The position numbers and the translations under genes are program-made. A stretch of DNA of 45,422 nucleotides from assembly GCA_947459165.1 (NCBI GenBank), contig CANHCW010000001.1, positions 1-45,422 of the forward strand, in the 5' to 3' direction. The stretch is from Flavobacteriales bacterium (GTDB lineage Bacteria; Bacteroidota; Bacteroidia; NS11-12g; UBA955). This document shows, piece after piece, positions 20,544-42,509 of the stretch. The notes below the pieces were generated by a model, which saw only the letters and a list, made by a program, of their open reading frames with translations, was not told the origin of the DNA and did no database searches. The stretch's first letter is position 1. Each line of letters starts with the position of its first letter.

Positions 20544-20574
20544 TTTGTATGTTTCGAGAGAAAGTGTACTTTTG
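20544..20574 (+). promoter_or_regulatory. Candidate susC promoter: -33 TTTG, 19-nt spacer, -7 TACTTTTG
   Basis: TTTG at 20544-20547 and TACTTTTG at 20567-20574 match the Bacteroides-type consensus TTTG-N19-21-TAnnTTTG. The ATG is at 20604. Confidence 0.45.
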
Positions 20575-20581
20575 ACGCAAA
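20561..20581. promoter_or_regulatory. Operator-like site, left half conserved (AAAGTGT-acttttg-ACGCAAA)
   Basis: Shares AAAGTGTAnnTTTGAC with the MFS-upstream palindrome. The right arm is degenerate (ACGC). Overlaps the -7 box. Confidence 0.3.
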
Positions 20582-20603
20582 CTAATTGGATGAAATCCGA
20601 AAA

Positions 20604-23651: not shown

Positions 23652-23653
23652 TC

Positions 23654-25512: not shown

Positions 25513-26396
25513 AAAATCTGATGAAATATACGCTTGCGGCTTTTTTGCTGATATTCTCAGCCAGGGCCAACTCTCAGGCTGCTTTCCTGGATAAACCGGA
25601 TGAATTTGACCCGGCCAAGCCCTGTAAAATTATGGTGAACCTGAAACTCACCACAAACCAATGGGATATTGTGAATATTGCTACCACGGAAGATATGTAT
25701 TTGTGGATTTGGAAGCCAAAGGAGCATCCTGCTGGACATCCGTTGGTAAATGGGTTGGGCTCGGCGGCCTGGAAGAGTAGCAACCCTGCTTTGAAAATGA
25801 CCAAAGAGGCAGAGGGAATTTACAGTTACACCTTTACACCCACATTGTTCTTCGAAACCGATGCGGCTACGATTTACAAAGAAAATTTTCATTTTTTGGT
25901 AAAACCGCAAGATGGAGGGGGGTATGGTGATCCTGACCGGAAAACAGAAGATCTGCTTATTGAAGTTGACCCGCCTGCCGGCCCTGTCGTGAAAATTCAG
26001 AGCTTACCTATAGGTTCAGGTTTAAAGAAGGACACCATAGGGACAACAACGAAAGATGTTTTCAGCATTGTGTACAACAATACTGCCGAAGAGAAAGCAA
26101 CCATGAGAAATGCTGCCGAACTTTATGTATATCCTGTAGCTACAGATTCATCAGGTGCCATATACAAAATAGCGTCCAATCCAAAACGGGTTGCTGATTT
26201 TCCACAGCTGAAAATGAAGCAGACTACAACCGGAATTTTCCAATACAGTTGTGTTCCTGAAAAACTGTTTACCCTGCCTGCAGGCAAAAAGATCTACAGC
26301 ATCGATTTTATGATTGTAAAACCGAATTTGGTTGATTCTAACGATGCCATTGATGACAAAATGCAGTATTTCTTTAATCAGGGCGGGTGCCGCTGA
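25509..26396 (+). CDS. Secreted two-module protein in SusF-like position (candidate glycan-binding protein)
   Basis: ATGA overlap with the upstream gene. Signal peptide. Internal duplication: ..LKMTKEAEGIYSYTFTPTLFF..IYKENFHFLVKP versus ..LKMKQTTTGIFQYSCVPEKLF..IYSIDFMIVKP. Confidence 0.55.
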   Translation: MKNLMKYTLAAFLLIFSARANSQAAFLDKPDEFDPAKPCKIMVNLKLTTNQWDIVNIATTEDMYLWIWKPKEHPAGHPLVNGLGSAAWKSSNPALKMTKEAEGIYSYTFTPTLFFETDAATIYKENFHFLVKPQDGGGYGDPDRKTEDLLIEVDPPAGPVVKIQSLPIGSGLKKDTIGTTTKDVFSIVYNNTAEEKATMRNAAELYVYPVATDSSGAIYKIASNPKRVADFPQLKMKQTTTGIFQYSCVPEKLFTLPAGKKIYSIDFMIVKPNLVDSNDAIDDKMQYFFNQGGCR

Positions 26397-26471: not shown

Positions 26472-27845
26472 TCAGTTCTGCAGTTTAATTACTTTGTAAT
26501 CCCAGGCATCGAGGTTTCTTGTAGGGTTCCCCAATAAAATCTGTCCCTGAGGAACTTTAACTGCTTTTTTGAATGGTTTGGAAGACAGGTTGAGGCAAAC
26601 CCAGAATTGTTGGTCTGCAGTTCCGCGTTTAAAAATGAGTATGTTTTTGTTTTTGCTTTTCAGCGGTTGAAATCTGTTGAGTTCAGGGGAAGTTCCAAGT
26701 GCGGAATATTGAGTGCGCAATTGGCCCAGACTACGGTAGAACCCATAATAATCAAGATCTGTTTGCGGTTGTATGGTGTCTTTTTCAAAGAATTTCAAAC
26801 GGATGTTGTTTCCGTATTCTTGTCCTGTGTATAGCAGTGGAATACCCGGTGCTGTGAATACGAAAACGGCCATGGCTTTCCAGCAGTTTTTCATTCTTTC
26901 AAATTCGGTTCCATTCCAGCTGTTTTCATCGTGGTTGGTTATGAAATTCATTGAGTAGACATTTGAAGGGAAAGTTCTTAATTTTTTCTTTAGCAAAGTA
27001 TCAAGATATAAGGCTTTCTTTTTTCCCTTGGCAACCTCGTTCATGGCATGGTGGAGTTCCCAACCATAATAGGCATTGAATGCGCCTTTAAACTGACCCA
27101 TATCGTGTTCTTCCGACTCAGCGAGCATGAAGATTTTTCTTCCGTCGGTTTCCAGTTCTTTGCGGGCTTTGTTCCAGAATGCTGAAGGCACACTCATGGC
27201 CACATCGCAACGAAAACCATCTATGCCGGTGCTATCGAGCCAGAATTTCATGCACTTTACCATTTCATCGGTCATAGCGGTGTTGGAATAGTTTAAATCT
27301 GCCACATCTGTCCAGCCAATACTGTTGCCTTCTTCATTCAGGGGATCTGTAATGTTGCCATTTTTGTCTTTGGTATACCATTCGGGGTGTTCACTAATCC
27401 ACGGATGATCCCAGGCAGTGTGGTTTCCAACCCAGTCTAAAATAACCTTTATTCCGGACGCCTGGCAAGCCCGAACCACATTTTTAAAGTCGCTAAGGCT
27501 TCCGTAATCAGGGTTTACAGCGGTATAGTTGCTAATTGAATAAGGACTACCCAGGTATTTTTTTCTCACTTGCGGATCGGCAATATCTTCCACAAACAAA
27601 TCGCCTTTGGCTTTGCGTTTTTTCATGCCTATGGGTTGTACCGGCATAAACCAGATTACATTAACACCCAGCTCTTTCAATTTAGGGATTTCTCTTGCAA
27701 AGCTTTTTATCGTTCCCTCAGCGGTGTGCTGACGCAAATTCACCTCGTAAATCAAAGGATTTTTAGGCCAGTCTGAAGGTTGTGCCCTTGAAACTGGCAA
27801 TCCCATTGCCAGCATAAAGGCCAGAAGTATGAAATTCTTTTTCAT
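26472..27845 (-). CDS. GH13 alpha-amylase family enzyme (signal peptide, probably periplasmic)
   Basis: GH13 regions I VILDWVGNH, II GIDGFRCDVAMSVP, III FMLAESEEHD, IV NFITNHDEN. Confidence 0.85.
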   Translation of the reverse strand: MKKNFILLAFMLAMGLPVSRAQPSDWPKNPLIYEVNLRQHTAEGTIKSFAREIPKLKELGVNVIWFMPVQPIGMKKRKAKGDLFVEDIADPQVRKKYLGSPYSISNYTAVNPDYGSLSDFKNVVRACQASGIKVILDWVGNHTAWDHPWISEHPEWYTKDKNGNITDPLNEEGNSIGWTDVADLNYSNTAMTDEMVKCMKFWLDSTGIDGFRCDVAMSVPSAFWNKARKELETDGRKIFMLAESEEHDMGQFKGAFNAYYGWELHHAMNEVAKGKKKALYLDTLLKKKLRTFPSNVYSMNFITNHDENSWNGTEFERMKNCWKAMAVFVFTAPGIPLLYTGQEYGNNIRLKFFEKDTIQPQTDLDYYGFYRSLGQLRTQYSALGTSPELNRFQPLKSKNKNILIFKRGTADQQFWVCLNLSSKPFKKAVKVPQGQILLGNPTRNLDAWDYKVIKLQN

Positions 27846-27846
27846 T

Positions 27847-30300
27847 TTAATTTTTTGAATAGATATGAATCAGGGCTTGCGTAGGTTGAACGATGAATCC
27901 CCCTCTCAGTCGCACCAAATTGTCTTTATCAAAGCCGGAAGACCATGTGGACTTGAGCTCACCACCAAATTCCTTGAGAATTGGATACAATGCTCCCGGT
28001 TCCACAACATCATCCACGATGGTCTTACTTCCCCTGTTTATGGCCATCACAGCCATTTCATTGAGATATTGGCGCACAACCACAACCTGAGAATCATTGC
28101 AGGTTACTAATTTGTAATCGCCGTAGCAAAGGGCCATACTGCCGGTTCGCAGATTCGCCAGTTCAGAAATTTTGTTTTTGAATTCGGTTTGCTGCCGGGT
28201 TAAGCCTGAAAACTGCATCATATTGCGATTTCCCGGGTCGTTTCCCCCGGTCATTCCTATTTCATCTCCATAGTAAATTACCGGAATTCCTGGCGCTGTA
28301 AAAAGCCAACTGTAAAACTGAAGAAAGCGGGTGTAGGCAGTATCTGATTTCAAAGGCAAATCTCGGGTATGCCCTATTTTTTTTAGTTCATTCCAGCTCA
28401 TGTTGCTATGTAAAGAACCGTCTGCCCACGACATAAACCTGGGTTTATCCTGATTTCCGGTGATGTTTCCCATAAGGTGGTGATGCCCGTAACGATCGAG
28501 GCTTTTTAACTGCTCATTCACCAAAGATTGAAGTGAACCACCTTGCGCAAAAGTTCTTAGCATGGCATCATACAGGTTAAAGTCGAATTGGGCGTCAAGC
28601 AATCCGTGACCAAGGTAAGAACCGATGAGTGCGGAACCGCCATATGTTTCGCCAATCTGATAAATGCGTTGTTTTCGTTTGGGCTCAATTTCGGTGCGTA
28701 TTTTGGCCGTGAGCAGGCGGGTGAAATTTTCCGGAATGTGCTTGGTGGCATCGTGGCGAAAGCCGTCGAATTCAAACTCCTTGAGCCAATAAAGTGCGGA
28801 ATCAACCATGTAGTTCGCCACCTCAGTTCTTCCCAAATCCAGAGTAGGAAGAAAAGTGTCAAACCAGGTCGTGAGCCTTTGTTCATCCCATAATTCTGTA
28901 TTCATGCGCCCATCGGGCAAATACAAGGGTGTAACCCAGTCGGGGTGAAGCTTGTAAATGGGATGTTCTTTGTGAACATGGTGTGCCACATAATCGAGGT
29001 ACACATTGTTGTTTTTTCGGTGCGCCGAAGTGAGCATTTGCCTCAACTGTTCAGCATTGCCAAATCGTTCATCCAGCAGTGTATTGCTCACAGGCCAATA
29101 TCCATGGTAGGCGCTGAATTTTACCTGCGGATCAGGAAAATCACCCCATGCCCCTTTAGGGTTTTTTGAAATGGGGCTAATCCATAGTGCGTTGCTGCCA
29201 AGACTATCAAAATATCCCGCATCAATTTTTTGTTGAATACCCAAAATGTCGCCGCCCTGAAAATTAGTTCTTTCGGTCACTTTCGGATGTGAAAGCGGTT
29301 TGTCGTTGCTTTTGTCACCGTTGTGAAAACGATCAACAAAGGCAAAGTACATTACAGTTTTTTCCAAATCTTCCCGCGAAAGCAATTTGGCATCGGTTAC
29401 AGGGATTCCAAATTCCAGTGGAATCAGCAAATCATTTCCGTGGACGAACTCGGTGGCAGCGAACACGCGAATAAAACTGCGTTTTGTGTTTTTGGCCTCC
29501 TGAGGTATGCTAAGTGCTGTTTCACTTCCCGCAGATCGTGATCTAAAAATAACCTGATTGTTCCACAATGCAATCAGGTTCAATTTTGAATCATTGAGGT
29601 TTTCGGCTTGTCTGATCAGAAGACTGGATGGACTTGTAATTGCTTCGATATGTGGCGAAGGACGCGTTTCTTTCACCGTCAGCACTGAATTTTCCCCTCC
29701 CATTCCGTTGCTTCTTTTCAGCGCATTCTGAGGATCGAGTATGCTGTTGCCGTTTACAACAAGCTGATAGCTGTATTCACCGGGTTCGAGCATTAAGGTT
29801 GTACGGTAGATGTTATCACTGTTTTCAGTGAGTGGTGTTGATTTATCGTTCCAGCTGTTAAAATCGCCCTTTACAAAAACCCGGTCGGAAGGTTTGCCTT
29901 TGAAACTCAATTGAACAGGTATTTTCACCGGTTTTTTCAACACCAGATCACAACGGGTCTTGTCGGTAATATTTAACAATGGAATATCAAATAAAACTCC
30001 GTTGTCGGTTCTGCTGGGGCAAACAATTTTCAGTTCAGGTATATTATTATAAGATAAAACAGTAAGCAGGTTTTCAGATTCTTTTATTTGTTCGTGATTC
30101 GGGTTCACATACAAATTCACACATTTACCAGGAAAAATATCTCCATTGGCTATTGTTGTTGTATCTCCGGTGAGCCAGACGGGCATAACCGGTGCCGATA
30201 ATGAGGCATACGGAATGCTTCCTTTTTGTTTTTTAAACAGTCCGCATGAGCTTAAAGATAGAGAAAGCGATGAAAGCGCTATGCATTTAATGAAATTCAT
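27847..30300 (-). CDS. GH13 alpha-glucan hydrolase lipoprotein with CBM48/E-set-like module (amylase/pullulanase type)
   Basis: Lipobox LSLSLSSC-G. CBM48-like VFVKGDFNSWNDKS...GEYSYQLVVNG. GH13 regions VYLDYVAHH, FDGFRHDATKH, YQIGETYG, GNQDKPRF. Confidence 0.8.
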   Translation of the reverse strand: MNFIKCIALSSLSLSLSSCGLFKKQKGSIPYASLSAPVMPVWLTGDTTTIANGDIFPGKCVNLYVNPNHEQIKESENLLTVLSYNNIPELKIVCPSRTDNGVLFDIPLLNITDKTRCDLVLKKPVKIPVQLSFKGKPSDRVFVKGDFNSWNDKSTPLTENSDNIYRTTLMLEPGEYSYQLVVNGNSILDPQNALKRSNGMGGENSVLTVKETRPSPHIEAITSPSSLLIRQAENLNDSKLNLIALWNNQVIFRSRSAGSETALSIPQEAKNTKRSFIRVFAATEFVHGNDLLIPLEFGIPVTDAKLLSREDLEKTVMYFAFVDRFHNGDKSNDKPLSHPKVTERTNFQGGDILGIQQKIDAGYFDSLGSNALWISPISKNPKGAWGDFPDPQVKFSAYHGYWPVSNTLLDERFGNAEQLRQMLTSAHRKNNNVYLDYVAHHVHKEHPIYKLHPDWVTPLYLPDGRMNTELWDEQRLTTWFDTFLPTLDLGRTEVANYMVDSALYWLKEFEFDGFRHDATKHIPENFTRLLTAKIRTEIEPKRKQRIYQIGETYGGSALIGSYLGHGLLDAQFDFNLYDAMLRTFAQGGSLQSLVNEQLKSLDRYGHHHLMGNITGNQDKPRFMSWADGSLHSNMSWNELKKIGHTRDLPLKSDTAYTRFLQFYSWLFTAPGIPVIYYGDEIGMTGGNDPGNRNMMQFSGLTRQQTEFKNKISELANLRTGSMALCYGDYKLVTCNDSQVVVVRQYLNEMAVMAINRGSKTIVDDVVEPGALYPILKEFGGELKSTWSSGFDKDNLVRLRGGFIVQPTQALIHIYSKN

Positions 30301-32591
30301 TCAATGTGAATATGGTGATCTTTCAATACTTTGAATTCTTGTCCATAGCAAGCGATGGTAGAGTCCGGGCCTTCCAGATTTTGAACGGAAATGGATCGGT
30401 TTTTAATTTGAATGCCAAAAAGATTTTCTCTGAAACGAAGTTGAAACCGAATACTATGCCATTTCTCAGGTAAAGCGGGATTTAAATGTAATTTTTCATT
30501 GCGTACACGAATACCCGCAAATCCTTTGCTGATGGTCATCCAGGTTCCGGCCATACTGGTTATGTGACAACCATCGCAGGTATCGTTGTTAATGTCATTT
30601 AAATCGAGACGAGCCGTGCGCAGGTAAAACTCATAGGCCTTTTCCCTGTTTCCGATTTTATTGGCCAGAATGCTGTGAATGCACGGGGACAACGAGGATT
30701 CATGCACGGTGAACGGTTCGTAAAAGTCGAAATGACGGCGGTGGACTTCCATGTCAAAATCGTCTTCAAAAAAGTAAAATCCCTGCAATACATCGGCCTG
30801 TTTGATATAACAGCTTCTGAGTATTCGATCCCAGCTCCAGTGTTCTACAATGGGTCGCTGTGACGATGGTAGTTCAGATACGGGAATGAGTTCTTTGTCT
30901 AAAAAGCCATCGTGCTGAAGAAACACATTGCGTTCCGCATCAAACGGAAAATACATGTTTGACTGGATGTTCAACCATTGCTCAACTTCAGAAGAATCCA
31001 GTTCGGTTTTTGCTTTAATTTCAAGTAACCTTTTACTGGTGGCTTTGCTTAGCTTATTGTATTGTTCTGCTGCATAACGCATGCACCATGCTGCAATGTA
31101 ATTGGTGTACCAGTTATTGTTTACATTGTTTTCAAACTCGTTTGGACCGGTTACACCCAGCATCACGAATTTTTTTTTATCATTGGACCAATTTACCCGC
31201 TGTGCCCAGAATCGCGCGATTCCAATCAGTACTTCCAGTCCGTTTGAAGCCATGTAATCTTCATCGCCCGTGTAGCGGATGTAATCGTAAATGGCATAAG
31301 CTATGGCACCGTTGCGGTGAATTTCTTCAAAAGTAATTTCCCATTCGTTGTGGCATTCTTCCCCATTCATGGTAACCATGGGGTACAAGGCTGCCCCGTT
31401 TTTAAAACCGAGTTTTTCGGCATTTTCAATCGCTTTTGGCAGTTGCTGATAGCGGTATAGCAAAAGATTGCGTGCAACTTCGGGTGAAGCAGTTCCCAGG
31501 TAAAACGGAATGCAATAGGCTTCTGTATCCCAATAGGTACTGCCACCATATTTTTCGCCGGTAAATCCTTTGGGGCCAATGTTCAGGCGAGCATCGTCGC
31601 CGGTGTAGGTTTGAAAAAGCTGGAAGATATTGAAGCGAATCGCCTGCTGTGCTGATTCATCGCCCTCTATTTCAATATCGCAGTTTTTCCAGATGGCTTT
31701 CCAGGCGGAATATTGTTCATCTTTGAGTGTTTCAAATCCTGCCTGATAGGCCTCGTTAATTTCCCTAATTCCCTGATTCGCAAAATCTTCCCGTTTAACA
31801 TACAAATCACTCAGGATGATGCTGTATTTATCGAAATTCAGTGTTTCTCCTGCTTTCAGCCGGAATTCGTATTCCATGCCTGCATAAAGCTCATGGTTTG
31901 TGCCGTTGGATTTAACAGCCGCCATGCCGCTGTTCCATTTGTGTTGGCATAAGGCATATACACCGAAGTTTGTTTTGCGGGTTTCCTGCGACAGCCAGGC
32001 AATGGGCTGTTCATGAAAATCCGCCTTTGTGTTTTGCCAGAAGAATTCATCGTAATTGGCATCTTGATTTCGAACATCGCCGTTCAGCCCGCTTTTAATG
32101 TGGATTGTGCAATCCTCTTCGGCAGTTAAGCTGTAGCGAATAACCCCCAGGTTTTTGCGGTGCATACTGCAAAAACGCTGTGTTTTTGCGCGGATGGTTT
32201 TGTCTGCTAATTTAACTGTGAATTCCCTGTTCAACACCCCTGCCTGCATGTCCAGTTCTCTTCTGAAATGCAATGGTGTATGCTTGGCCAGATCTATTTC
32301 AGTTCCATCAATGGAAATTTCAATGCTGCTCCAGTTTACTGAATTGAGCACCTTGGCAAAGTATTCGGGGTAGCCGTTTTTCCACCATCCCACGCGGGTT
32401 TTATCGGGGTAATAAATGCCTGCAATGTAGGAACCTCTTAGACTTAAACCTGAATAGGTTTCTTCAAAGTTGCCTCTTTGGCCCATTCGACCATTTCCAA
32501 TGCTGAAAATACTTTCTGAAATTTTACTGTTTTCGGGATGAAAACCGTCTTCAACAATCTTCCAGGGTTTTATCGAGATGTAATCCTTCAT
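30297..32591 (-). CDS. GH65 glycoside phosphorylase, most likely maltose phosphorylase
   Basis: 764 aa. GH65 catalytic-region motif GVTGPNEFENNVNNNWYTNY. Sits immediately upstream of beta-phosphoglucomutase, with ATGA overlaps on both sides. Confidence 0.8.
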   Translation of the reverse strand: MKDYISIKPWKIVEDGFHPENSKISESIFSIGNGRMGQRGNFEETYSGLSLRGSYIAGIYYPDKTRVGWWKNGYPEYFAKVLNSVNWSSIEISIDGTEIDLAKHTPLHFRRELDMQAGVLNREFTVKLADKTIRAKTQRFCSMHRKNLGVIRYSLTAEEDCTIHIKSGLNGDVRNQDANYDEFFWQNTKADFHEQPIAWLSQETRKTNFGVYALCQHKWNSGMAAVKSNGTNHELYAGMEYEFRLKAGETLNFDKYSIILSDLYVKREDFANQGIREINEAYQAGFETLKDEQYSAWKAIWKNCDIEIEGDESAQQAIRFNIFQLFQTYTGDDARLNIGPKGFTGEKYGGSTYWDTEAYCIPFYLGTASPEVARNLLLYRYQQLPKAIENAEKLGFKNGAALYPMVTMNGEECHNEWEITFEEIHRNGAIAYAIYDYIRYTGDEDYMASNGLEVLIGIARFWAQRVNWSNDKKKFVMLGVTGPNEFENNVNNNWYTNYIAAWCMRYAAEQYNKLSKATSKRLLEIKAKTELDSSEVEQWLNIQSNMYFPFDAERNVFLQHDGFLDKELIPVSELPSSQRPIVEHWSWDRILRSCYIKQADVLQGFYFFEDDFDMEVHRRHFDFYEPFTVHESSLSPCIHSILANKIGNREKAYEFYLRTARLDLNDINNDTCDGCHITSMAGTWMTISKGFAGIRVRNEKLHLNPALPEKWHSIRFQLRFRENLFGIQIKNRSISVQNLEGPDSTIACYGQEFKVLKDHHIHIE

Positions 32592-33247
32592 GCTGAATGC
32601 ATCAGTTCTTTAATGCTATCAATGGTGAAGCCCTGCAATCCGGTTGTGCAGATGTCTGCCAAATTCAGTTCTGCAGGGTTTCCAAGTCCCCAAACCCACA
32701 TGCCTGCTTTTTTACCTGCTTGTACGCCGGCAGGAGCATCTTCAACAACAAGGCAGTTTTCAGCCGCTTTTCCCATAAATTCGGCTGCTTTAATAAAAAC
32801 CTCCGGATCGGGTTTGGTTTTGGCAACCATATTTCCGTCAACAATGGCGGTAAAGCGTCTTTCCAGCCCAATTTTGCGCAGAATGAAACGAGCATTTTTC
32901 GAACTGCTGCCCACAGCCAGGCTCAGTCCACGGGAATCCAGGTCATTCAAAAAATCTGTTACGCCGGGCAATATGTCTTTGGCAGAGAGATTTTCAATCG
33001 ATTCAAGATACCTGTTATTTTTTTCTTCAAGCAGTTTTAGTTTATCTGCCTTACTGATGTTTGAATTCGCCCAATTACATATTAATTCCAAACTTTCGCT
33101 GCGGCTTACCCCCTTTAATTTTTCGTTGTGTTCGTGGGTTAGATTCAGCCCCAACTTAAAAGCAATTTCTTTCCAGGCAAAATAGTGATGACCTGCCGTA
33201 TCTGTAAGTACGCCATCCAAGTCAAAAATTACAGCTTTGATATTCAT
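32588..33247 (-). CDS. pgmB: Beta-phosphoglucomutase (HAD superfamily)
   Basis: HAD motif I AVIFDLDGVLTDT, motif II VGSSSKNA, motif III/IV KTKPDPEVF...VVEDAPAGVQAGKKAGM. Confidence 0.85.
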   Translation of the reverse strand: MNIKAVIFDLDGVLTDTAGHHYFAWKEIAFKLGLNLTHEHNEKLKGVSRSESLELICNWANSNISKADKLKLLEEKNNRYLESIENLSAKDILPGVTDFLNDLDSRGLSLAVGSSSKNARFILRKIGLERRFTAIVDGNMVAKTKPDPEVFIKAAEFMGKAAENCLVVEDAPAGVQAGKKAGMWVWGLGNPAELNLADICTTGLQGFTIDSIKELMHSA

Positions 33248-34113
33248 TCTCTTGCGTCCGCCGTTTCGGTTCGCATATTCAAGTGGAACTTCAATAAAGA
33301 CCGGGCAGGATTTTTATCTATAACACCAATTCTAAATCCCCTTTCACCGGCTATGCGGTGCATGATATCACTGAAAAAGTGAGCTACAGAACCTACAAAA
33401 TGAACTGGCACATCGCGGTAATTTGGGTAACACGCAATGTGAATTTCCGCAAACCGATTCAAACCATTGTAAACCATGTTTTTAACATAAGAATGTTCCC
33501 TGTGTGGAACCAAAAACTTCATGAAGGAAGCGAGAAAAACATTGGCATGAGGATTACCATAAACCGAATTAAAAATATCTTCTTTGGTCAGTGAGTAGGT
33601 TTCTTTAAAGCTGCTATCGAGTTCCGGGGGAAGACGATGATAGAGAAAATCGGAGACAATCTGTTTTCCGAAATAAGAGCCGCTGCCTTCATCGCCAAGA
33701 ATGAAGCCCAAGGCGGGAACGATTTCACTCACCAGTTTTCCATCGTAATAGCAACTATTGCTTCCTGTTCCTATGATACAGGTTATGGCAGGCTCTCCTT
33801 TCCAGGTGGCAAATGCCGCCGCATATAAATCATGATTCACAGCGCATTCGGCATTTGGGAAAGCTCTTTTTAAAGCATCAAGAACAATGCTATTTCTTTC
33901 ATTGCTTGAACAACCCGCACCATAAAAGTAAACAGCCTCAATACAATTGGCGTGCTCAGTTAATATGCCATTATTCTGAATGTGCGTGTAAATTTCGTCG
34001 GTTGAAAAGAAGAATGGATTGAAACCAACAGTGTGTGTTTCAATGACATCGCCGTTTTCACGACTTAACAACCAATCACATTTGGTGGATCCGCTTTCTG
34101 CAACAACAATCAT
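33244..34113 (-). CDS. BadF/BadG/BcrA/BcrD-type ATPase; N-acetylglucosamine-kinase-like sugar kinase (predicted glucokinase role)
   Basis: ASKHA motifs VAESGSTKCDW, IIGTGSNSC, LGDEGSGSYFG. It is the first gene of the 5-gene operon. Confidence 0.65.
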   Translation of the reverse strand: MIVVAESGSTKCDWLLSRENGDVIETHTVGFNPFFFSTDEIYTHIQNNGILTEHANCIEAVYFYGAGCSSNERNSIVLDALKRAFPNAECAVNHDLYAAAFATWKGEPAITCIIGTGSNSCYYDGKLVSEIVPALGFILGDEGSGSYFGKQIVSDFLYHRLPPELDSSFKETYSLTKEDIFNSVYGNPHANVFLASFMKFLVPHREHSYVKNMVYNGLNRFAEIHIACYPNYRDVPVHFVGSVAHFFSDIMHRIAGERGFRIGVIDKNPARSLLKFHLNMRTETADARE

Positions 34114-34129
34114 AAATTCCTTAGATTGG

Positions 34130-34137
34130 CAAACTTA
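34130..34137 (-). promoter_or_regulatory. Candidate -7 box (TAAGTTTG on the minus strand) for the kinase-pgmB-GH65-GH13-GH13 operon
   Basis: The reverse complement of 34130-34137 is TAAGTTTG, identical to the MFS -7 box. It ends 16 nt upstream of the ATG at 34113. Confidence 0.4.
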
Positions 34138-34155
34138 GTGTATTTTGTACACAAA
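34135..34155. promoter_or_regulatory. Operator-like site TTAGTGT-attttgt-ACACAAA (GTGT-N7-ACAC core)
   Basis: Same core and spacing as the two strong palindromes. Abuts and overlaps the minus-strand -7 box. Also contains TGTACA and a TTAGT...ACTAA outer repeat. Confidence 0.35.
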
Positions 34156-34263: not shown

Positions 34264-34974
34264 ATGACCGAACCCCGCATTAACCCCAATGTATCCGTTG
34301 ACTGTGTTATCTTTAGCTTTGAGGACGATGGACTGGAAGTTTTGCTGATTGAACGAAATGCCGGCCAAAATCGGATAGAAGATGATTTGCTGGCACTGCC
34401 CGGAAACCTTATATACGAAGATGAAACTCTGGATGCGGCCGCAAACCGCGTTTTGCGCGAATTGACCGGTTTGAAGAATATTTATTTGGAACAGGTTTAT
34501 ACATTTGGCGATCCGGCACGCATAAACAAACAAAAAGATCAGGACTGGCTGCACAGTATCCGGGCGCATCCCGAGGCAAGGGTGATTACCGTGGCCTATA
34601 CTTCTTTGGTTAAAAAATCAAACTTTAAGATTTCACCCAGTTCGTTCGCAAGGCAAGCCATGTGGGTGAAGGTTAAAGAAGTTCCCCAACTTGCTTTCGA
34701 CCACAATGCCTTGCTTGAAAAGGCGTTGGAGTACTTAAAACATAAAATTTATATTGAACCTCTGGGTTATGAATTGTTGCCCGAAAGATTCACACTGGCG
34801 CAGCTGCAAAAATTATACGAAGCCATTCTCGACGATCATTTTGATAAGCGAAATTTTCGCCGGAAGGTACTGAGAACATCCTTTATCATTCCATTGAACG
34901 AGAAACAAAAAGGTGTTGCACACAAACCGGCGGGGCTTTATCGTTTCGATAAATCGAAATTTCACAAAATCTAG
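34264..34974 (+). CDS. NrtR/AraR-like transcriptional regulator: degenerate Nudix domain + C-terminal winged helix
   Basis: Nudix-box remnant GNLIYEDETLDAAANRVLRELTGL lacks the REUXEE glutamates. The C-terminal LPERFTLAQLQKLYEAILDDHFDKRNFRRKVL is typical of the NrtR-family wHTH. Confidence 0.7.
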   Translation: MTEPRINPNVSVDCVIFSFEDDGLEVLLIERNAGQNRIEDDLLALPGNLIYEDETLDAAANRVLRELTGLKNIYLEQVYTFGDPARINKQKDQDWLHSIRAHPEARVITVAYTSLVKKSNFKISPSSFARQAMWVKVKEVPQLAFDHNALLEKALEYLKHKIYIEPLGYELLPERFTLAQLQKLYEAILDDHFDKRNFRRKVLRTSFIIPLNEKQKGVAHKPAGLYRFDKSKFHKI

Positions 34975-34995
34975 TGATTCTGCGACCTGTCTTAT

Positions 34996-35016
34996 AAAGT
35001 GTAAGTTTGACACTTT
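34996..35016. promoter_or_regulatory. Perfect 21-bp palindrome AAAGTGT-aagtttg-ACACTTT (candidate operator) enclosing a -7 box TAAGTTTG (35002-35009)
   Basis: 7/7 complementary arms read directly from the sequence. Ends 43 nt upstream of the MFS transporter ATG. Confidence 0.5.
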
Positions 35017-35059: not shown

Positions 35060-36415
35060 ATGGAAAAGAAACCCCGTCTGTCGGTTGCTGAAATAGTTTG
35101 GATGAGCTTTGGATTTATGGGAATTCAATGCGGTTTTGGTCTGCAAAACGGCAATGCCAGCCGAATTTTGGAAGATTTTGGAGCCAAAGTGCATGAACTA
35201 AGCTGGTTTTGGCTGGTGGCTCCGCTGACCGGCATGCTGGTGCAACCATTGATTGGTTATTTCAGCGATAATACCTGGACAAGACTGGGACGAAGAAAAC
35301 CTTATTTTCTGGCCGGAACCTTGCTGTGCTGCATTGCAATAGTGGTTTTACCCAACAGTGCTGCCTGGTTCGCAGGAAAATCGGCGTTGCTGTTCGGCGC
35401 CCTATTTCTAGCCTTGATGGATGCCAGTATCAATGTGGCTATGGAGCCATTTCGAGCTTTGGTTGCCGATAATTTGGGCGACGAACAACGCACCCTTGGC
35501 TTTAGTATTCAAACTTTTCTGATTGGTATAGGTGCTGTTTTGGGAAGCTGGTTGCCCTGGATGATGACAAACCTGTTTCATGTGAGCAATGTAGCTCCAC
35601 GGGGCTATGTGGCCGACAATGTTGTGTATTCTTTTTACGCAGGTGCAGCCTTCTTTCTGGCCAGCATTCTGGTTACGATACTGTTTGCCCGCGAATACGA
35701 TCCCGAAACCTACGCCCGTTATCATGGAGAAAAGCAATCAGACGACAAAGCAGGTTTGTCAGAAATTTTTCGCGATTTCGGTAAAATGCCCAAGGCCATG
35801 CTACAATTGGGGCTTGTTCAGTTTTTCAGCTGGTTTGGACTGTTTTGCATGTGGGTTTATACCACCAAAGGAATTGCTGAAAATGCATACGGCTTGCCCG
35901 TTGGAATATCGGAGTATGATGGCGTCCAAAAGGCAGTGTTCGGCAAAGCCGGCGACTGGGTTGGCATATTGTTTGGCATTTACAATGGTGTGAGTGCCAT
36001 TTATGCTCTGGTATTACCGGCAATCGTGAGGTTGATTGGCAGAAAGCAAACCCATGCTTTATCGCTGGTTTGTGGTGGAATGGGTTTAATTTCCATGTTT
36101 TTCATTACCAATCCCAACAACCTCATTTTTAGCATGATTGGAGTGGGAATGGCCTGGGCAAGTATTCTGGCCATGCCTTATGCTATTCTGGCCGGAAGCA
36201 TACCTGCAGGTAAAATGGGAATTTACATGGGTATTTTCAATTTTTTCATCACCATTCCTCAAATTACCAGCGCTTTACTTGCGGGACCGATGGTTGCTTT
36301 CATATTTGGCAACCAAGCCATCTATGCTTTGTTGACCGGCGGCGCCATGATGCTGTTTGCCGCTGTTTCCATGATTTATGTGAATGACGGCAGGTTAATC
36401 CGAATGAAAGATTGA
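35060..36415 (+). CDS. MFS sugar:cation symporter (GPH/SLC45-like; predicted maltose/maltodextrin inner-membrane importer)
   Basis: 12 predicted TM helices. GYFSDNTWTRLGRRKPY loop motif typical of GPH/sucrose-type transporters. The locus context supports the role. Confidence 0.75.
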   Translation: MEKKPRLSVAEIVWMSFGFMGIQCGFGLQNGNASRILEDFGAKVHELSWFWLVAPLTGMLVQPLIGYFSDNTWTRLGRRKPYFLAGTLLCCIAIVVLPNSAAWFAGKSALLFGALFLALMDASINVAMEPFRALVADNLGDEQRTLGFSIQTFLIGIGAVLGSWLPWMMTNLFHVSNVAPRGYVADNVVYSFYAGAAFFLASILVTILFAREYDPETYARYHGEKQSDDKAGLSEIFRDFGKMPKAMLQLGLVQFFSWFGLFCMWVYTTKGIAENAYGLPVGISEYDGVQKAVFGKAGDWVGILFGIYNGVSAIYALVLPAIVRLIGRKQTHALSLVCGGMGLISMFFITNPNNLIFSMIGVGMAWASILAMPYAILAGSIPAGKMGIYMGIFNFFITIPQITSALLAGPMVAFIFGNQAIYALLTGGAMMLFAAVSMIYVNDGRLIRMKD

Positions 36416-36420
36416 AAAAT

Positions 36421-38259
36421 CTATTTTTTCCGAAAATGTAATACCATTATGCCGTTTGGTGTTAAACCCTTTTCCGGCTGTCCGGCATTTTCATTGGAAA
36501 CAATAACTTTACCTGAATCCCAATCTGCCTCTATATCGGGGTATAGTTTAAAGTTTGGAGTGAATTGGGGATTGGACTGATTCGCAAATATTCCCAGCAC
36601 ATCTTTTTCACCTTCTATAAAGAATGCGTACACCCCGTTTTTGGGAATGTAATGGGTTCTTTTTCCTCTTATAAAAAGTTGCGCATATTCTGCCCGAACT
36701 GATGACAGGGATTGAATAAATTCATACATGACTTGATAGGGGTTCATGGCATCGAAACCAGAAAAGGAATCACCGGGCCAGCCACCGGGAAAATCCTTGC
36801 GTATGGCACCATGCGCGCCGGTATCCCTCATCAGTACTTCGGTTCCGTAAAAAACACAGGGAATTCCCCTGCACATATAAGTCAGGGCCAAAGCCAGTTG
36901 TGTTTTTTTTACATTCTGCCCAAAAGTTGCATGCATACGGTTTAAATCGTGGTTATCGGCAAATGTTACCAGCAACTCCGGGTGTTTGTAAAGTCTGTCC
37001 GAAGCCAGAATATAATAAAGTCGGGTTAGGCCGGTATTCCAGCCAAAGGGTTCGTTCAATGCCTTTTCCAGCCCAAAGCAGAACTGAAAATCGGTTGCGG
37101 CATCGGGCACAATGCTATTTTTGTCGCCAATGTTGTTCGGGGCAAATCCCGCCTGAGCTGTGATGGTATGTTCCCAACTTTCACCAAAAACAAAAATTTC
37201 CGGATAAACTGCCTTCAGTCTGAGATTGAGTTTTTCAAGAAATGCAGGTTGTGAATAAGGATATGTGTCAATACGCACGCCTGAAGCATTGGTAACCGAA
37301 ATCCACCACAGCGTGTTTTGAATGAGGTAATGCGCCAGGTGCAGATTGTCCTGATTCAGATCGGGCATGTGCGTATCGAACCAGCCACGGGTCATACCTT
37401 CAACTTCACTTTTGGCGGCATACGGGTCTGAAAGGGCGGCAACCCTGTAATTTGTTCTTCTGAATGTATCTCCACTGCTGTTGAACCAGGAAGGTGACAC
37501 CATATCGCGGTAGAGAAAATGTCTGTTACCGATGTGGTTGTAAACGCAATCTAAAATGAATTTTACGCCTGAATCACGGCATTGTTGTGCCAGGTTTGCA
37601 TAGTCATTCAGTGTCCCGTAGCGGGGATCAATCCGATAATGGTCGGTGCATGCATAACCATGATAACTTTGCTCGGGCTGATTATTTTCGAGCAAGGGTG
37701 TCATCCACAAGGCGTTAAAGCCCAGCGATTTGATGTGTCCAAGGTGAGAAGCCACGCCGGCTATGTCTCCTCCGTGTCTTCCATGCAGGGCTTTTCGGTC
37801 GGCTTTTTCAACCATATCCTTTGCATTGTCATTGCCATTGTTCCCGTTGGCAAATCGATCAGGCATAATCAAATACATGCGGTCGGCGGCGGTTATCGGC
37901 TTTCCTGATTTCGGTTTCGCCTTTATTTCATAGGGTATTTTGCTTTTGAAATTTTTACCGTAAAGCAGGTTGAATGTTCCGATAAAGTTTTCCGGAATGG
38001 TGAGATAGAGTATTTTGTAATTACTGCTCAGTGAGTTGCAGGTATCAGTAATTTGAATCAAATCGGGCTGGTCAGTTTTGAATGAAATGTGAGTAATTTT
38101 TTCTCCATACAGGAGCAATTGAAGGTTTTTAGACCCCATTTGTGTGAACCAATAGGGTGGTTCAATGCGGAATTTTGTTTGTGACCGGGCTGTTTTAGGA
38201 AACAAAAAAACAACACAACACAAAGAAAAACAATTAATTAACAATTTTTTAGGGTGCAT
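36421..38259 (-). CDS. GH13 neopullulanase/cyclomaltodextrinase-like enzyme (SusA-like) with signal peptide
   Basis: GH13 regions FILDCVYNH, SGVRIDTYPY, VFGESWEH, FADNHDLNRM, plus an N-terminal extra domain. The ATG at 38259 (MHPKKLL..) is preferred over the TTG at 38283. Confidence 0.8.
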   Translation of the reverse strand: MHPKKLLINCFSLCCVVFLFPKTARSQTKFRIEPPYWFTQMGSKNLQLLLYGEKITHISFKTDQPDLIQITDTCNSLSSNYKILYLTIPENFIGTFNLLYGKNFKSKIPYEIKAKPKSGKPITAADRMYLIMPDRFANGNNGNDNAKDMVEKADRKALHGRHGGDIAGVASHLGHIKSLGFNALWMTPLLENNQPEQSYHGYACTDHYRIDPRYGTLNDYANLAQQCRDSGVKFILDCVYNHIGNRHFLYRDMVSPSWFNSSGDTFRRTNYRVAALSDPYAAKSEVEGMTRGWFDTHMPDLNQDNLHLAHYLIQNTLWWISVTNASGVRIDTYPYSQPAFLEKLNLRLKAVYPEIFVFGESWEHTITAQAGFAPNNIGDKNSIVPDAATDFQFCFGLEKALNEPFGWNTGLTRLYYILASDRLYKHPELLVTFADNHDLNRMHATFGQNVKKTQLALALTYMCRGIPCVFYGTEVLMRDTGAHGAIRKDFPGGWPGDSFSGFDAMNPYQVMYEFIQSLSSVRAEYAQLFIRGKRTHYIPKNGVYAFFIEGEKDVLGIFANQSNPQFTPNFKLYPDIEADWDSGKVIVSNENAGQPEKGLTPNGIMVLHFRKK

Positions 38260-38300
38260 CTTTCGGGTGAATTTCTTCAACAAAGTAAAAAAATTTTTTC

Positions 38301-38321
38301 AAAGTGTCTTTTTTACACTTA
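38301..38321. promoter_or_regulatory. 21-bp palindrome AAAGTGT-ctttttt-ACACTTa (candidate operator)
   Basis: 6-bp perfect arms AAGTGT/ACACTT with the same 7-nt spacer. Lies in the divergent GH13 / T9SS-CBM promoter region, 8 nt upstream of a -7 box. Confidence 0.45.
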
Positions 38322-38328
38322 TTGTTTT

Positions 38329-38336
38329 TAGTTTTG
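38329..38336 (+). promoter_or_regulatory. Candidate -7 box (TAGTTTTG) for the T9SS starch-binding-module protein
   Basis: Matches TAnnTTTG and ends 23 nt before the ATG at 38360. Confidence 0.35.
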
Positions 38337-38359: not shown

Positions 38360-39664
38360 ATGATTAAGAATTACTTAACAATTTGTGCTCTGGCTGCAGC
38401 AACAGGTCTGAGTGCTCAAACTGATGTTACACTGATGGTGAATGATCAGAACAACAAAAACAAAACAGCTATTAAAGTAAAAGGTGCGTTCAACGGCTGG
38501 GCAGAAGTTTCTGCCTACGACGACGGAACCAATGGTGATGCTACTGCCAACGACAACATCTGGTCTGTAAAATTTACAGGCGTTGCCGACGGAACTTACG
38601 AGTGGGGAGCTGTTGATCAAACCGGTGGCTGGTTGCTTTCGGGCCGCGCTAATGCCAAATTTACAGTAGCGGGTGCCAGCGTAACCGGCGAAACTGAATT
38701 TGTTATTCCCAAAGCAAAACCCACTCACCCTGTAACCTTTACCATTTCCGATTTAGCCAAAAAAGAATCTCAGGTTTCTTTGAAAGGATCTATGTTCTCA
38801 TGGTCTGCCAAGCCCATGTTTGATGATGGAACCAACGGTGATGCAAAAGCAGGTGACAACATCTGGACTTTGAAAGAGAACATTGAAGAAGGCAACTGGG
38901 AATGGGGAATTGAAAACCAGTGTGGCTGGAAATTGGTAGGCCCCAACAAAAAATACACAGTAAACACCGATGGTACCACAACAGGTGATATCAGCTACAG
39001 CATTCCTGCCCAAACTACCCCAATTAATGTAACCTTCCGCGTTTGGATGGGTGATGTGATTGTGAATGCTGCCGGACTCTATGTGGCAGGTGATTTCATG
39101 GATGCCATTTCAGGTAAGTCTTTGTGCAACTGGACCAAAGATACCCTGCGCATGACCGATGCCAACAAAGACGATGTATATGAATTGCAGGCAGCTTTCT
39201 CTCCCGGATCTTACCAGTTTAAGTTTTTCAATGGACGCGGTGGTGATCAGGATGGTGAAAAAGGTGATTTCAAAACCGGTGGTTGCGGAAACGACAATGG
39301 TTTGGGCGGTTTCAACAGAACGATCAACCTGAGTGGCTTAACCAAAGACACTGTTTTGGTAATTTTCAAATACGACAGTTGCGCCACTTACAAAGCGGCT
39401 ATGTCTTCTGTAAAAAAGAACACCAAAGTGGTTAGCGCCATGTATCCCAACCCTGCAAGCAGCAACGCCAATATTTTGTTCGCTGACAAATCAGCTTCAC
39501 ACAGCGTTGAGGTGATGGATTTGGCCGGTAAAGTGGTTGCAGTGTACAACTTCGCTGAAGGAACAGCCACAGGCACCATCAGTAAGCCAACTTCCGGTAC
39601 TTTCCTGGTGCGTGTTAATTCTTCAAATGGTCAGTCTTCTTCCAGCTTGATCATTTTTGAGTAA
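38360..39664 (+). CDS. T9SS-sorted protein with three tandem CBM48/E-set-like carbohydrate-binding modules and no catalytic domain
   Basis: Signal peptide. Repeats: VKGAFNGWAEVSAYDDGTNGDATANDNIWSVKF..GTYEWG, LKGSMFSWSAKPMFDDGTNGDAKAGDNIWTLKE..GNWEWG, and a third VAGDF...GSYQFKFFNG. C-terminal Por tail MYPNPASSNANILF...GTFLVRVNSSNG. Confidence 0.65.
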   Translation: MIKNYLTICALAAATGLSAQTDVTLMVNDQNNKNKTAIKVKGAFNGWAEVSAYDDGTNGDATANDNIWSVKFTGVADGTYEWGAVDQTGGWLLSGRANAKFTVAGASVTGETEFVIPKAKPTHPVTFTISDLAKKESQVSLKGSMFSWSAKPMFDDGTNGDAKAGDNIWTLKENIEEGNWEWGIENQCGWKLVGPNKKYTVNTDGTTTGDISYSIPAQTTPINVTFRVWMGDVIVNAAGLYVAGDFMDAISGKSLCNWTKDTLRMTDANKDDVYELQAAFSPGSYQFKFFNGRGGDQDGEKGDFKTGGCGNDNGLGGFNRTINLSGLTKDTVLVIFKYDSCATYKAAMSSVKKNTKVVSAMYPNPASSNANILFADKSASHSVEVMDLAGKVVAVYNFAEGTATGTISKPTSGTFLVRVNSSNGQSSSSLIIFE

Positions 39665-39686: not shown

Positions 39687-39722
39687 AAGGCAACTTTCAA
39701 TAACTGAAGGTTGCCTTTTTTT
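39687..39722 (+). terminator. Strong intrinsic terminator
   Basis: 13-bp stem (39687-39699 / 39705-39717, one G-U pair), 5-nt loop, 7-T run to 39722. It contains the TTG at 39711 that the ORF track used as the start of the next gene. Confidence 0.8.
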
Positions 39723-39740
39723 CTGATATTTGAGTTGAAT

Positions 39741-42509
39741 ATGAATCGCCTTAAAATTTTACTTTTTTCAATCAGTTTTGGTCTTATCGGCCAGAGTTTC
39801 TCTCAGGTTACCCTTGACCCGGTTTTTGCGTTGCAAACAGATACTGTAATGGTTTATTATGACGCAACCAAAGGAAATGCTGTTTTGAAGGATCTGGGAC
39901 CACCCGATGTGTACATTCACAGCGGGGTTATTACCGAGTTGAGTAAAACACCGGTGGAGTGGCGTTATGTAAAGGGTGTTTGGGGTACTGACGATTTGCC
40001 CAGAAAAATGACTTATGTAGGCAACAATGTTTACAGATTCAAGCTTCATATTCCCACATTCTATGGAGTTCCGGCCAATGAGAAAGTGCTGAAACTCGCT
40101 TTTGTTTTTCGCGACAAATCAGGAAACAAAGTTGGACGCAACGCAGATGGTACTGATATATTCGCCACCATTTTTCAAGCCGGGCTAAAGGCCACCTTTA
40201 CTTCACCCGCAGAAATTCCGGGTATTTTTGAAACCGGCGATACCCTAAAAATAATCGCCACCATTTCTGAAAAGGCGCTTGTATCATTTTATGACAACGG
40301 AGTGTTGGTTGATACCCAGACGACTTCAGAGTACAAAAGAAATGTTACGGGTCTTGCAAGCGGTAATCATCGTTTCGTAGTGAAAGCATTAAAAGGGGGG
40401 ATAACTGCTTCAGATACGCTGAATGTAATGATCAATTCAACAGTGAAAACAGAGGCTCTTCCTGCAGGAATGCTCGATGGTGTAAACTACCTGAATGACA
40501 GCACCGTTTTGTTTTCGCTTTATGCCCCCAATAAAAAATTCGTGTATGTAAACGGCGATTTTTCAAATTGGCAATTAAGCATACCCCAGTTCATGAACAA
40601 AACCCCGGATGGCAAGCGCTGGTGGGCGAAGATTTCCGGCTTGAAACCGGGAACACAATATGGTTACCAGTTCATAGTTGATGGCATCTTAAAAATTGCC
40701 GACCCTCTAAGTGAACTGCTGCTTGATCCTTGGAATGATGGATTCATAAACAAGGCTGATTTTCAGGGTTTACCCAATTATCCCTCCGGCAAAACAACCG
40801 GATTGGTGAGTGTTATCAGACCAGGGTTGAAACCATTTGACTGGAAAAACAGGAATTTCAAAATTCAGGATCCGGCCAAACTGAATGTATATGAACTTCA
40901 CATTCGCGATTTCATTGCGACGCACAGTTATACTGTTTTAATTGATACCCTTGCATATTTAAAGAGATTGGGAATCAATGCCATTGAGTTGATGCCGGTG
41001 AATGAGTTTGAGGGCAATTCCAGTTGGGGCTACAATTCTTCGTACCACATGGCAACGGATAAATATTACGGCAGTCCTGAACAATTAAAAGCCTTTATCG
41101 ACGAGTGCCATAAGCAGGGCATGGCCGTATTTCTCGATGCGGTTCTGAATCATGCCTTTGGGCAAAGCAGTTTGTGTCAGTTGTATTGGAACAGCAGTTT
41201 GAATCAGCCGGCGGCAGACAACCCATGGTTAAACCCAGTTGCCCGGCACGACTTTAATGTGGGTTACGATTTCAATCATGAAAGTCCGGCCACTCAGACT
41301 TATGTTGACAGGGTAATAAAGTATTGGCTCACCGAATTTGATGTAGATGGATTCAGGTTTGATCTTTCCAAGGGATTCACCCAAAACAATACACTGGGCA
41401 ATACAACTGCATGGGGTTACTACGATGCAAGTCGCATTGCTCTGTGGAAGCGCATTCGTGATGTGGTTCGCAGTTATAACAGCGATGCATTGCTCATTTT
41501 GGAACACTTTGCAGATAACTCTGAAGAAAAAGAATTGGCTGGGGAAGGATTTTATTTTTGGGGGAATGCAAATGGTCCGTATACGGAAGCATCTATGGGT
41601 TATTCTTCCGATCTGAATTGGGGAAGCAATTACAAGGCCCGTGGATGGAATGCACCTCGATTGCTTTCGTATATGGAAAGCCATGATGAGGAAAGGATGA
41701 TGTATAAAAACATCACTTTTGGCAATTCCAATGGCGCCTATAATGTTAAAACATTGGCGACGGGCTTGAAAAGAACCGAAATGGCAGCAGTGATTTTTTT
41801 CAGTATTCCCGGCCCAAAAATGATTTGGCAGTTTGGAGAACTGGGTTACGATGTGGGCATCAACACAAATGGACGAACCGGAGAAAAACCCATTCGTTGG
41901 GAATACATGAAGGATCAGCGCAGATTGAATGTTTACAATGTTTTTGCTACCATGATGAATCTTCGCAATCAGTATCAGGTGTTTCACACAGGCAACAACA
42001 ATTTTGAGCTGAACAGCCCGGTGAAAAAAGCATGGTTGCAGGATAATGGACAATTCGTTCACATGATTGCCAACACTGATGTAAAAGCCGTTAATAGTAC
42101 TTTGTATTTTCAGGATACCGGAAAGTGGTATGAGGTTTTCAGTGGAGACAGCATGCGCATTGGCAATATTGCCGTGCCTGTGAATTTACAAGCCGGAGAA
42201 TACCGCCTGTACAGCAATGTAAAAATGCCTGCTGTTCGCCTGCAAATTCCGCTTTCCGGAACATCCAAAACCGATGAAAAACAATTGAGACTATTCCCCA
42301 ATCCTGCACAGAATCAGTTGTTTGTTTCCTGGAACGGACAAAAAGCCATTGCAGAATGCAGGGATTTATCAGGTAAACTAATTGCAAAACAAACGCTTAG
42401 CAATGGGTTTGGAAGCATTCAAACCGACTCTTGGGCACCGGGAATATATTTTGTTCGATTGAACGCAGACGGAATAATCCGGAACGAAAAAATCATTATT
42501 CAACGCTAG
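39741..42509 (+). CDS. T9SS-sorted multidomain GH13 alpha-amylase
   Basis: The ATG at 39741 gives the signal peptide MNRLKILLFSISFGLIGQSFSQ. CBM48-like VYVNGDFSNWQ...GTQYGYQFIVDG. GH13 regions VFLDAVLNH, VDGFRFDLSKGF, LILEHFAD, YMESHDEERM. Por tail LFPNPAQNQLFV...GIYFVRLNADG. Confidence 0.85.
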   Translation: MNRLKILLFSISFGLIGQSFSQVTLDPVFALQTDTVMVYYDATKGNAVLKDLGPPDVYIHSGVITELSKTPVEWRYVKGVWGTDDLPRKMTYVGNNVYRFKLHIPTFYGVPANEKVLKLAFVFRDKSGNKVGRNADGTDIFATIFQAGLKATFTSPAEIPGIFETGDTLKIIATISEKALVSFYDNGVLVDTQTTSEYKRNVTGLASGNHRFVVKALKGGITASDTLNVMINSTVKTEALPAGMLDGVNYLNDSTVLFSLYAPNKKFVYVNGDFSNWQLSIPQFMNKTPDGKRWWAKISGLKPGTQYGYQFIVDGILKIADPLSELLLDPWNDGFINKADFQGLPNYPSGKTTGLVSVIRPGLKPFDWKNRNFKIQDPAKLNVYELHIRDFIATHSYTVLIDTLAYLKRLGINAIELMPVNEFEGNSSWGYNSSYHMATDKYYGSPEQLKAFIDECHKQGMAVFLDAVLNHAFGQSSLCQLYWNSSLNQPAADNPWLNPVARHDFNVGYDFNHESPATQTYVDRVIKYWLTEFDVDGFRFDLSKGFTQNNTLGNTTAWGYYDASRIALWKRIRDVVRSYNSDALLILEHFADNSEEKELAGEGFYFWGNANGPYTEASMGYSSDLNWGSNYKARGWNAPRLLSYMESHDEERMMYKNITFGNSNGAYNVKTLATGLKRTEMAAVIFFSIPGPKMIWQFGELGYDVGINTNGRTGEKPIRWEYMKDQRRLNVYNVFATMMNLRNQYQVFHTGNNNFELNSPVKKAWLQDNGQFVHMIANTDVKAVNSTLYFQDTGKWYEVFSGDSMRIGNIAVPVNLQAGEYRLYSNVKMPAVRLQIPLSGTSKTDEKQLRLFPNPAQNQLFVSWNGQKAIAECRDLSGKLIAKQTLSNGFGSIQTDSWAPGIYFVRLNADGIIRNEKIIIQR

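Follow-up and report, generated by a model that had tools for sequence, protein, structure and literature searches.

How polysaccharide-utilisation genes are switched in aquatic Flavobacteriales is poorly known. In the window analysed here, i.e. the whole stretch of 45,422 nucleotides, a starch locus could be recognised whose gene content amounts to a complete alpha-glucan/maltose system, and domain searches revealed no SusR-like or LacI-type regulator gene within or beside this locus. A 21-bp palindrome is situated at positions 38301-38321, in the gap of exactly 100 bp between a SusA-like GH13 gene and the divergently oriented gene of a T9SS-sorted starch-binding protein. The question raised by this arrangement is which protein, if any, recognises the palindrome and what its binding would mean for the two promoters. 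Based on the results presented below, the palindrome is very probably the operator of an NrtR/AraR-family repressor encoded within the locus at 34264-34974, which would shut both divergent promoters and be released from the DNA by a sugar.

SusC-like and SusD-like genes, together with two downstream surface-protein genes, occupy positions 20586-26396 of the plus strand (Pfam Plug/CarbopepD_reg, SusD and DUF4961). A catabolic operon on the minus strand (26472-34113; Pfam and synteny) encodes a BadF-type kinase, a beta-phosphoglucomutase-like HAD protein, a GH65 maltose phosphorylase and two GH13 enzymes. The regulator gene on the plus strand, located 3.3 kb from the palindrome, encodes the sole transcription factor inside the locus. 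It is followed by a gene for an MFS sugar transporter of the GPH type (35060-36415, plus strand; Pfam MFS_1 and MFS_2), a probable maltose/maltodextrin importer that matches the NCBIfam GPH_sucrose subfamily below the cut-off. The genes flanking the locus include Ppx/GppA and kynureninase, with a MarR protein encoded two genes away.

The divergent promoter region

The palindrome reads AAAGTGT-CTTTTTT-ACACTTA, with a spacer of 7 nt, and six of the seven arm positions pair (AAGTGT/ACACTT). The sole unpaired last base, the A at 38321, is part of an ACACTTA arm that is also present in nearly all orthologous sites. On re-reading of the sequence, the coordinates given in the initial annotation for the palindrome, the two ATG codons and the -7 box all proved correct, and the 6-bp perfect arms could be confirmed, as could the 7-nt spacing, described there as identical to that of the other copy at 34996-35016. 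A CRP-type site, the consensus of which has the form TGTGA-N6-TCACA, is ruled out by the spacing and symmetry read in the sequence.

The SusA-like GH13 protein (36421-38259, minus strand; Pfam PF00128 and PF09087) combines an alpha-amylase catalytic domain with a cyclomaltodextrinase N-domain. Its ATG at 38259 opens MHPKKLLINCFSLCCVVFLF, a typical signal peptide, and the CAT matching this ATG is kept in relatives, so the TTG at 38283, the longer start given in the ORF list, is unlikely to be used. On the other side of the gap, the ATG at 38360 opens MIKNYLTICALAAATGLSAQ, the signal peptide of a T9SS-sorted, non-catalytic protein of starch-binding type (38360-39664, plus strand; Pfam Por_Secre_tail and a weak X25 match, NCBIfam TIGR04183). 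A terminator-like hairpin with a T-run, AAGGCAAC...GTTGCCTT TTTTT, could be read on the plus strand at 39687-39722, 3' of the binding-protein gene; the terminator scan had missed this hairpin after 39664 owing to its loop of more than 8 nt. The gene that follows encodes a T9SS-sorted GH13 protein with CBM48 (39711-42509, plus strand; Pfam), the start codon of which is uncertain: the listed TTG at 39711 is located inside the hairpin, which places the true start further downstream. The hairpin also suggests that the predicted operator at 38301-38321 would control this T9SS GH13 gene only via read-through.

A -7 box of the Bacteroidota TAnnTTTG type, TAGTTTTG, was assigned by sequence match to the promoter of the T9SS starch-binding-protein gene (38329-38336, plus strand), leaving 7 nt between the palindrome and the box (38322-38328). 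The association with a promoter that had been claimed for the palindrome extends to the orthologous regions compared, in which the TAnnTTTG box mostly lies 7-8 nt past the right edge of the operator; the distance is 6 nt in L038 and 3 nt in L133, and L044 has no TAnnTTTG box on that side of the operator. Towards the SusA-like gene, a weak -7-like box, TTACTTTG, was assigned with low confidence on the minus strand (38281-38288). Read from 38288 to 38281, this box is separated by 12 nt from the operator and by 21 nt from the downstream ATG at 38259, and the block CAACAAAG found there is kept in genus-level relatives only. Control of the SusA-like side is less certain, this box being non-canonical.

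In the usual promoter layout of Bacteroidota, a -33 element precedes the -7 box by about 19-21 nt. By this layout, the -33/spacer region of the T9SS-gene promoter falls within the operator, as would the -33 region belonging to the TTACTTTG box. With both -33 regions inside the operator, one dimer could occlude both promoters. A sigma-70 promoter scan of the DNA gave no more hits than shuffled sequences, its model not being informative for Bacteroidota promoters.

Occurrence in the genome and in relatives

The palindrome could in principle be a chance inverted repeat, as intergenic DNA is AT-rich and the statistics obtained within the window are modest: with no more than two mismatches allowed, two matches to the palindrome were found where 0.27 would be expected, and two matches were also obtained in 2 of 100 shuffles. 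Against chance stand the results obtained with the whole assembly, a MAG of 2.28 Mb in 242 contigs with 85% completeness. AAGTGT-N7-ACACTT occurs in it only at 38301-38321 and 34996-35016. There are 11 copies of the core GTGT-N7-ACAC by itself, and the three of them that lie within the starch locus are all intergenic. A symmetrised position weight matrix (PWM), built from the sites of relatives only with the own genome left out, was scanned over the whole assembly and ranked 38300-38322 first with a score of 27.5. Ranks 2 and 3 were taken by other sites of the locus, at 34995 (24.7) and 34134 (22.5).

The further PWM hits scoring above 12 were a weak site at susC (13.4), two intragenic sites and one weak intergenic site. 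The intragenic hits, C81:4711 and C166:1846, were rejected as extra members of the regulon for their position, and C19:18765 was rejected since, although intergenic, it has a poor right arm. The same stretch of this contig (C19:18765-18830), situated before an ORF of 1051 aa, carries TGTCATTTTGTC twice, about 55 nt apart, together with a weak half-match to the operator; these repeats may represent the site of another regulator.

The core of the PWM is circular, its training sites having been picked by GTGT-N7-ACAC. For 38301-38321 only, this circularity is removed by an unbiased search in seven species, in which all inverted repeats with arms of 4-5 nt and spacers of 0-15 nt were collected from the 220-260 nt that precede the SusA-like gene, the regions being set by the gene boundary only. 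GTGT-N7-ACAC was the only inverted repeat present in all seven SusA-upstream regions, while the best unrelated pattern reached three of the seven. The top PWM rank, the restriction to two copies genome-wide and the recurrence in seven of seven species are in agreement with the initial annotation, which had held these palindromes to be non-random.

Absence of the site from orthologous intergenic regions had been named beforehand as the observation that would speak against it; the site was found in every examined locus in which a SusA-like gene diverges from a T9SS gene (about 13 species of two families). Members of the second family keep this SusA/T9SS intergenic site even though their enzymes are only 34-45% identical. 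In relatives without the binding-protein gene, the operator is situated directly upstream of the T9SS GH13 gene. All orthologous sites share the GTGT/ACAC arms without exception and have W-rich flanks, and their spacers are free to change. Invariant arms around a free spacer point to a protein-binding site rather than to a base-paired structure. A DNA or RNA hairpin acting without a protein partner was rejected as the identity of the palindrome on account of this pattern, in which arm sequence is conserved without compensatory changes, and of its weak folding (-4 kcal/mol, z -1.25). The palindrome is, moreover, located upstream of both predicted -7 boxes and is thus probably not transcribed. 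Taking the genome-wide and comparative results together, a chance repeat or a protein-free hairpin is extremely unlikely.

The predicted regulator and its relation to known systems

The regulator gene (34264-34974, plus strand), the start of which was placed by orthologue alignment, encodes a dead Nudix domain joined to a winged HTH, as in the NrtR/AraR family (Pfam PF21906, PF19368 and PF00293). Among solved structures its best match is BtAraR, which represses in response to L-arabinose in Bacteroides thetaiotaomicron (5BS6, E 2.6e-41) and to which it is about 37-40% identical, with the NrtR of Shewanella next (E 1.5e-17). The same order was obtained in a fold search with an AF2 model calculated from a 37-orthologue alignment (pLDDT 84.3, pTM 0.82), BtAraR being first (TM 0.74-0.79), followed by SoNrtR (TM 0.62-0.71).

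The DNA-contacting residues of BtAraR were mapped on the alignment (chain index = residue + 3). Asp178, Lys179, the intercalating Arg180, Asn181 and Arg183 are identical in the regulator and Lys184 is replaced by Arg; in the wing, Lys200 and Ala207 are unchanged, and Lys stands in place of Arg205. Throughout the sets of 14 and 37 orthologues, there is little or no variation in the helix DKRNFRR and the wing Q-x-G-V-x-H-K. The Nudix box, R-V-L-R-E-L-T-G-L, is degenerate, two glutamates of the REUXEE motif being replaced. In the arabinose pocket of BtAraR, Arg34, Val92, Phe129 and His131 are kept, Phe36 is changed to Ala and Phe49 to Leu, and a 15-residue insertion (P-x-R-x2-K-x2-D-x2-W-L-x3-R), invariant in the subfamily and modelled as a helix, is present at the position of Arg86. 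Given this insertion and the changed pocket residues, L-arabinose is probably not the effector of the regulator; our guess is a larger pocket that accommodates maltose or another glucose-type product.

Operators of the NrtR family are 21-bp palindromes with a conserved GT-N7-AC core (PMC2330246). For BtAraR, contacts in both the major and the minor groove define the GTGT motif, the motif being 21 bp long with 25 bp covered, and the tested operators are AGAGTGT-ATTTGAT-ACACCAA and AAAGTGT-TACTTTT-ACACCCA (PMC4666351). The palindrome at 38301-38321 has the sequence-level properties of an NrtR/AraR operator, namely the 21-bp symmetry, the GT-N7-AC core, GTGT half-sites, a clustered regulator gene and conservation.

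The likeness to BtAraR (BT0354; Chang et al. 2015; 5BS6, 5DD4, 5DDG and 5DEQ) includes the 21-bp semi-palindrome with GTGT-N7-ACAC, and the second tested operator has the same left arm, AAAGTGT, as 38301-38321. The binder is in both cases a homodimer with dead Nudix and wHTH domains (predicted here) in which Lys179, Arg180 and Asn181 are identical, and the sites are found in promoters of sugar-utilisation operons or PULs, with the regulator gene clustered with its targets. In contrast to BtAraR, the targets are alpha-glucan/maltose genes instead of arabinose genes, the operators are single instead of tandem, and the system is known here from sequence. Searches with Pfam found no ara genes in the starch locus, and together with the altered pocket this indicates that the regulator is not an AraR orthologue.

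SoNrtR of Shewanella oneidensis (3GZ5/3GZ6), an ADP-ribose-responsive repressor of NAD metabolism (Rodionov et al. 2008, PMC2330246), shares the architecture, the 21-bp palindrome and the GT-N7-AC core, but is the weaker match to the regulator. With NF050029, the NCBIfam equivalog model of NrtR, the regulator scored 127 bits against a cut-off of 400. No NAD genes were found in the predicted regulon, and both results indicate that the protein is not NrtR sensu stricto. XylR (BT0791) and the NrtR-like Ara/Xyl regulators of Flavobacteria are also sugar regulators of Bacteroidota with divergent regulator/operon sites, but are restricted to pentose pathways (PMC2330246). Only arabinose and xylose links of Bacteroidota NrtR-family members were found in the open-access literature (including PMC2330246), and no starch- or maltose-linked regulator of this family was found there. 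SusR of Bacteroides and the LacI-type maltose regulators resemble the predicted system in switching starch/maltose genes on their substrate; however, SusR is an unrelated membrane-spanning activator, while the LacI-type regulators are unrelated proteins that bind even-length palindromes. LacI is the usual maltose regulator in other Flavobacteriia.

The sites and the regulator gene occur together across relatives. GTGT-N7-ACAC adjoins the regulator gene in 28 of 30 orthologue loci, covering 79% to 49% identity and two families. Around 80 further orthologue loci, mostly from freshwater/marine Flavobacteriales MAGs labelled Crocinitomicaceae, Cryomorphaceae or Lishizhenia, 102 sites were counted in 1.05 Mb, the background density of the present genome being about 3.5 per Mb; in 69 of these 80 named loci a site is present no more than 300 nt upstream of the regulator. 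The orthologue search as a whole returned at least 594 matching stretches. Genomes without an orthologue of the regulator (e.g. G012, G038, G040, G042 and G043) showed motif counts at background only, and five regulator-less genomes are without GH65 too. Among 61 related genomes, which by their relatedness are non-independent samples, the regulator and GH65 were both present in 32 and both absent in 28, with an orthologue cut-off of E <= 1e-70 that was set post hoc where the E-values jump from 8.9e-71 to 2.3e-61. Several genera contain genomes of both kinds, with and without the two genes. The remaining genome, that of the genus-level relative G007, holds broken remnants of both genes on one contig (C21:13396-15320), where regulator pieces with an in-frame TGA lie beside a GH65 fragment. 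The starch locus of G007 appears to be decaying as a unit.

The core motif is the same as that of the arabinose-type AraR, so family members could cross-bind, and the sequence alone cannot name which NrtR-family protein binds. A paralogue encoded in the same genome, at C32:12165-12896 (L141:6166-6897), is 45% identical to the regulator, has the helix DKPNFRKK and is devoid of the 15-residue insertion. Its gene closes a cluster that includes a GH3 glycosidase and four Pfam-less ORFs, and the protein probably regulates a different glycan pathway through another type of operator. This paralogue, or an unrelated regulator recognising TGT/ACA repeats, might be the true binder of 38301-38321, and the sites that relatives have outside the starch locus, before T9SS PATR-repeat proteins and in one genome before pckA, could be taken in its favour. 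The paralogue, however, has Pro in place of Arg180, stands behind a GH3 gene and has no site on its contig, while the sites follow the in-locus regulator (in 69 of the 80 loci, as given above) and remain at background counts in genomes without its orthologue. A different binder is therefore considered very unlikely, and the protein encoded at 34264-34974 is retained as the predicted ligand of the palindrome.

Proposed control of the starch locus

The GTGT core of 38301-38321 recurs at other intergenic positions of the locus. A perfect copy, AAAGTGT-N7-ACACTTT, was found by genome scan at 34996-35016 as the predicted operator before the MFS (GPH-type) transporter gene, and genus-level relatives retain it downstream of the regulator. 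A further predicted operator, TTAGTGT-N7-ACACAAA, was located with the PWM at 34135-34155, between the kinase-pgmB-GH65-GH13-GH13 operon and the regulator gene, and overlaps the minus-strand -7 box TAAGTTTG (34137-34130) of the catabolic operon. The weaker operator-like sequence AAAGTGT-ACTTTTG-ACGCAAA at 20561-20581, just before the SusC-like gene, holds a perfect -7 box, TACTTTTG, in its spacer; its orthologue in G008 has an intact GTGT-N7-ACAC. The geometry thus differs among the four sites, which are situated upstream of, overlap or contain a -7 box. The proposal of the initial annotation that the palindromes tie these genes into one regulon is supported by these additional sites, and the four operators are predicted to form a small regulon covering every transcription unit of the starch/maltose locus.

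In the proposed mechanism, a repressor dimer would place one recognition helix in each GTGT/ACAC half-site of 38301-38321. The bound dimer would cover about 25 bp, including the -33/spacer region upstream of TAGTTTTG and the matching region of the SusA-like promoter, and a single dimer of the apo-repressor would block RNA polymerase at both promoters. A cytoplasmic sugar derived from alpha-glucan breakdown, most likely maltose or a glucose-type product, would bind to the Nudix domain; the DNA-binding domains would then swing out of register, as L-arabinose causes those of BtAraR to do, and this would open the promoters. Binding, its repressive sign, the transcription starts and the effector are all points that we infer. 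Divergons sharing one site are common in the NrtR family (Table 1 of PMC2330246).

Repression is the likely sign, because some operators of the locus overlap or contain -7 boxes and the characterised members of the family are ligand-released repressors. The same protein could alternatively activate one or both of the divergent promoters, or regulate them in a dual manner. The palindrome lies upstream of the -7 box with its centre about 30 nt before the inferred start, a position also occupied by some class II activators, and no clear TTTG was seen in the -33 region. Yet the characterised NrtR-family members, BtAraR included, are all repressors released by their ligand (PMC4666351, PMC2330246), and the overlap of 34135-34155 with one -7 box and the inclusion of another within 20561-20581 are incompatible with activation. 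Activation is accordingly regarded as unlikely, and ligand-released repression as the preferred reading of the site.

Similar sites were also observed in other parts of related genomes. Outside the starch locus, six genus-level relatives have strong GTGT-N7-ACAC sites (PWM 19-26) just upstream of large T9SS PATR-repeat proteins (L051:4042-4064 and L051:7606-7628 on contig C55 of G001, and likewise in L052-L056). No orthologue of the PATR-repeat T9SS protein was found in the present, 85%-complete assembly. The PATR-linked sites may be extra members of the regulon or targets of another family member. In one second-family genome, a near-perfect site, CTTAGTGTATTTTTGACACTAAG, with a PWM score of 30.4 (L058:3769-3791; contig C1 of G044, at about 878.8 kb) precedes the PEP carboxykinase gene by about 150 nt, a hint that in some lineages the regulon may extend to central carbon metabolism. 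In genus g16, a SusC-like gene diverges from a T9SS GH13 gene, and the intergenic region shared by both holds two sites about 180 bp apart (L057:4045-4247 and L059:3728-3930), one of them strong and the other with a GCGT/ACTC or GCGT/ACGC core.

The switch described here is most likely of a known type, connected in this case to starch/maltose genes rather than to those for arabinose or NAD. We consider it likely that the regulator belongs to a clade of Nudix-derived NrtR/AraR-family repressors that senses alpha-glucan/maltose, is so far undescribed, and has members in at least about 590 species-level genomes, mostly of uncultured freshwater/marine Flavobacteriales (Crocinitomicaceae, Cryomorphaceae and Lishizhenia). 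In these bacteria such repressors would take the place of starch control of the SusR or LacI type, and one shared operator would also subject the starch-binding proteins and amylases secreted by the T9SS to the same cytoplasmic sugar signal. The NrtR/AraR family would thereby be extended past NAD and pentose pathways. The result is a testable wiring diagram, in which one sugar-sensing repressor and four operators would govern uptake by susCD and the MFS transporter, periplasmic and cytoplasmic breakdown, and the T9SS-secreted enzymes, and GTGT-N7-ACAC would serve as a simple motif for regulon prediction in metagenome-assembled genomes.
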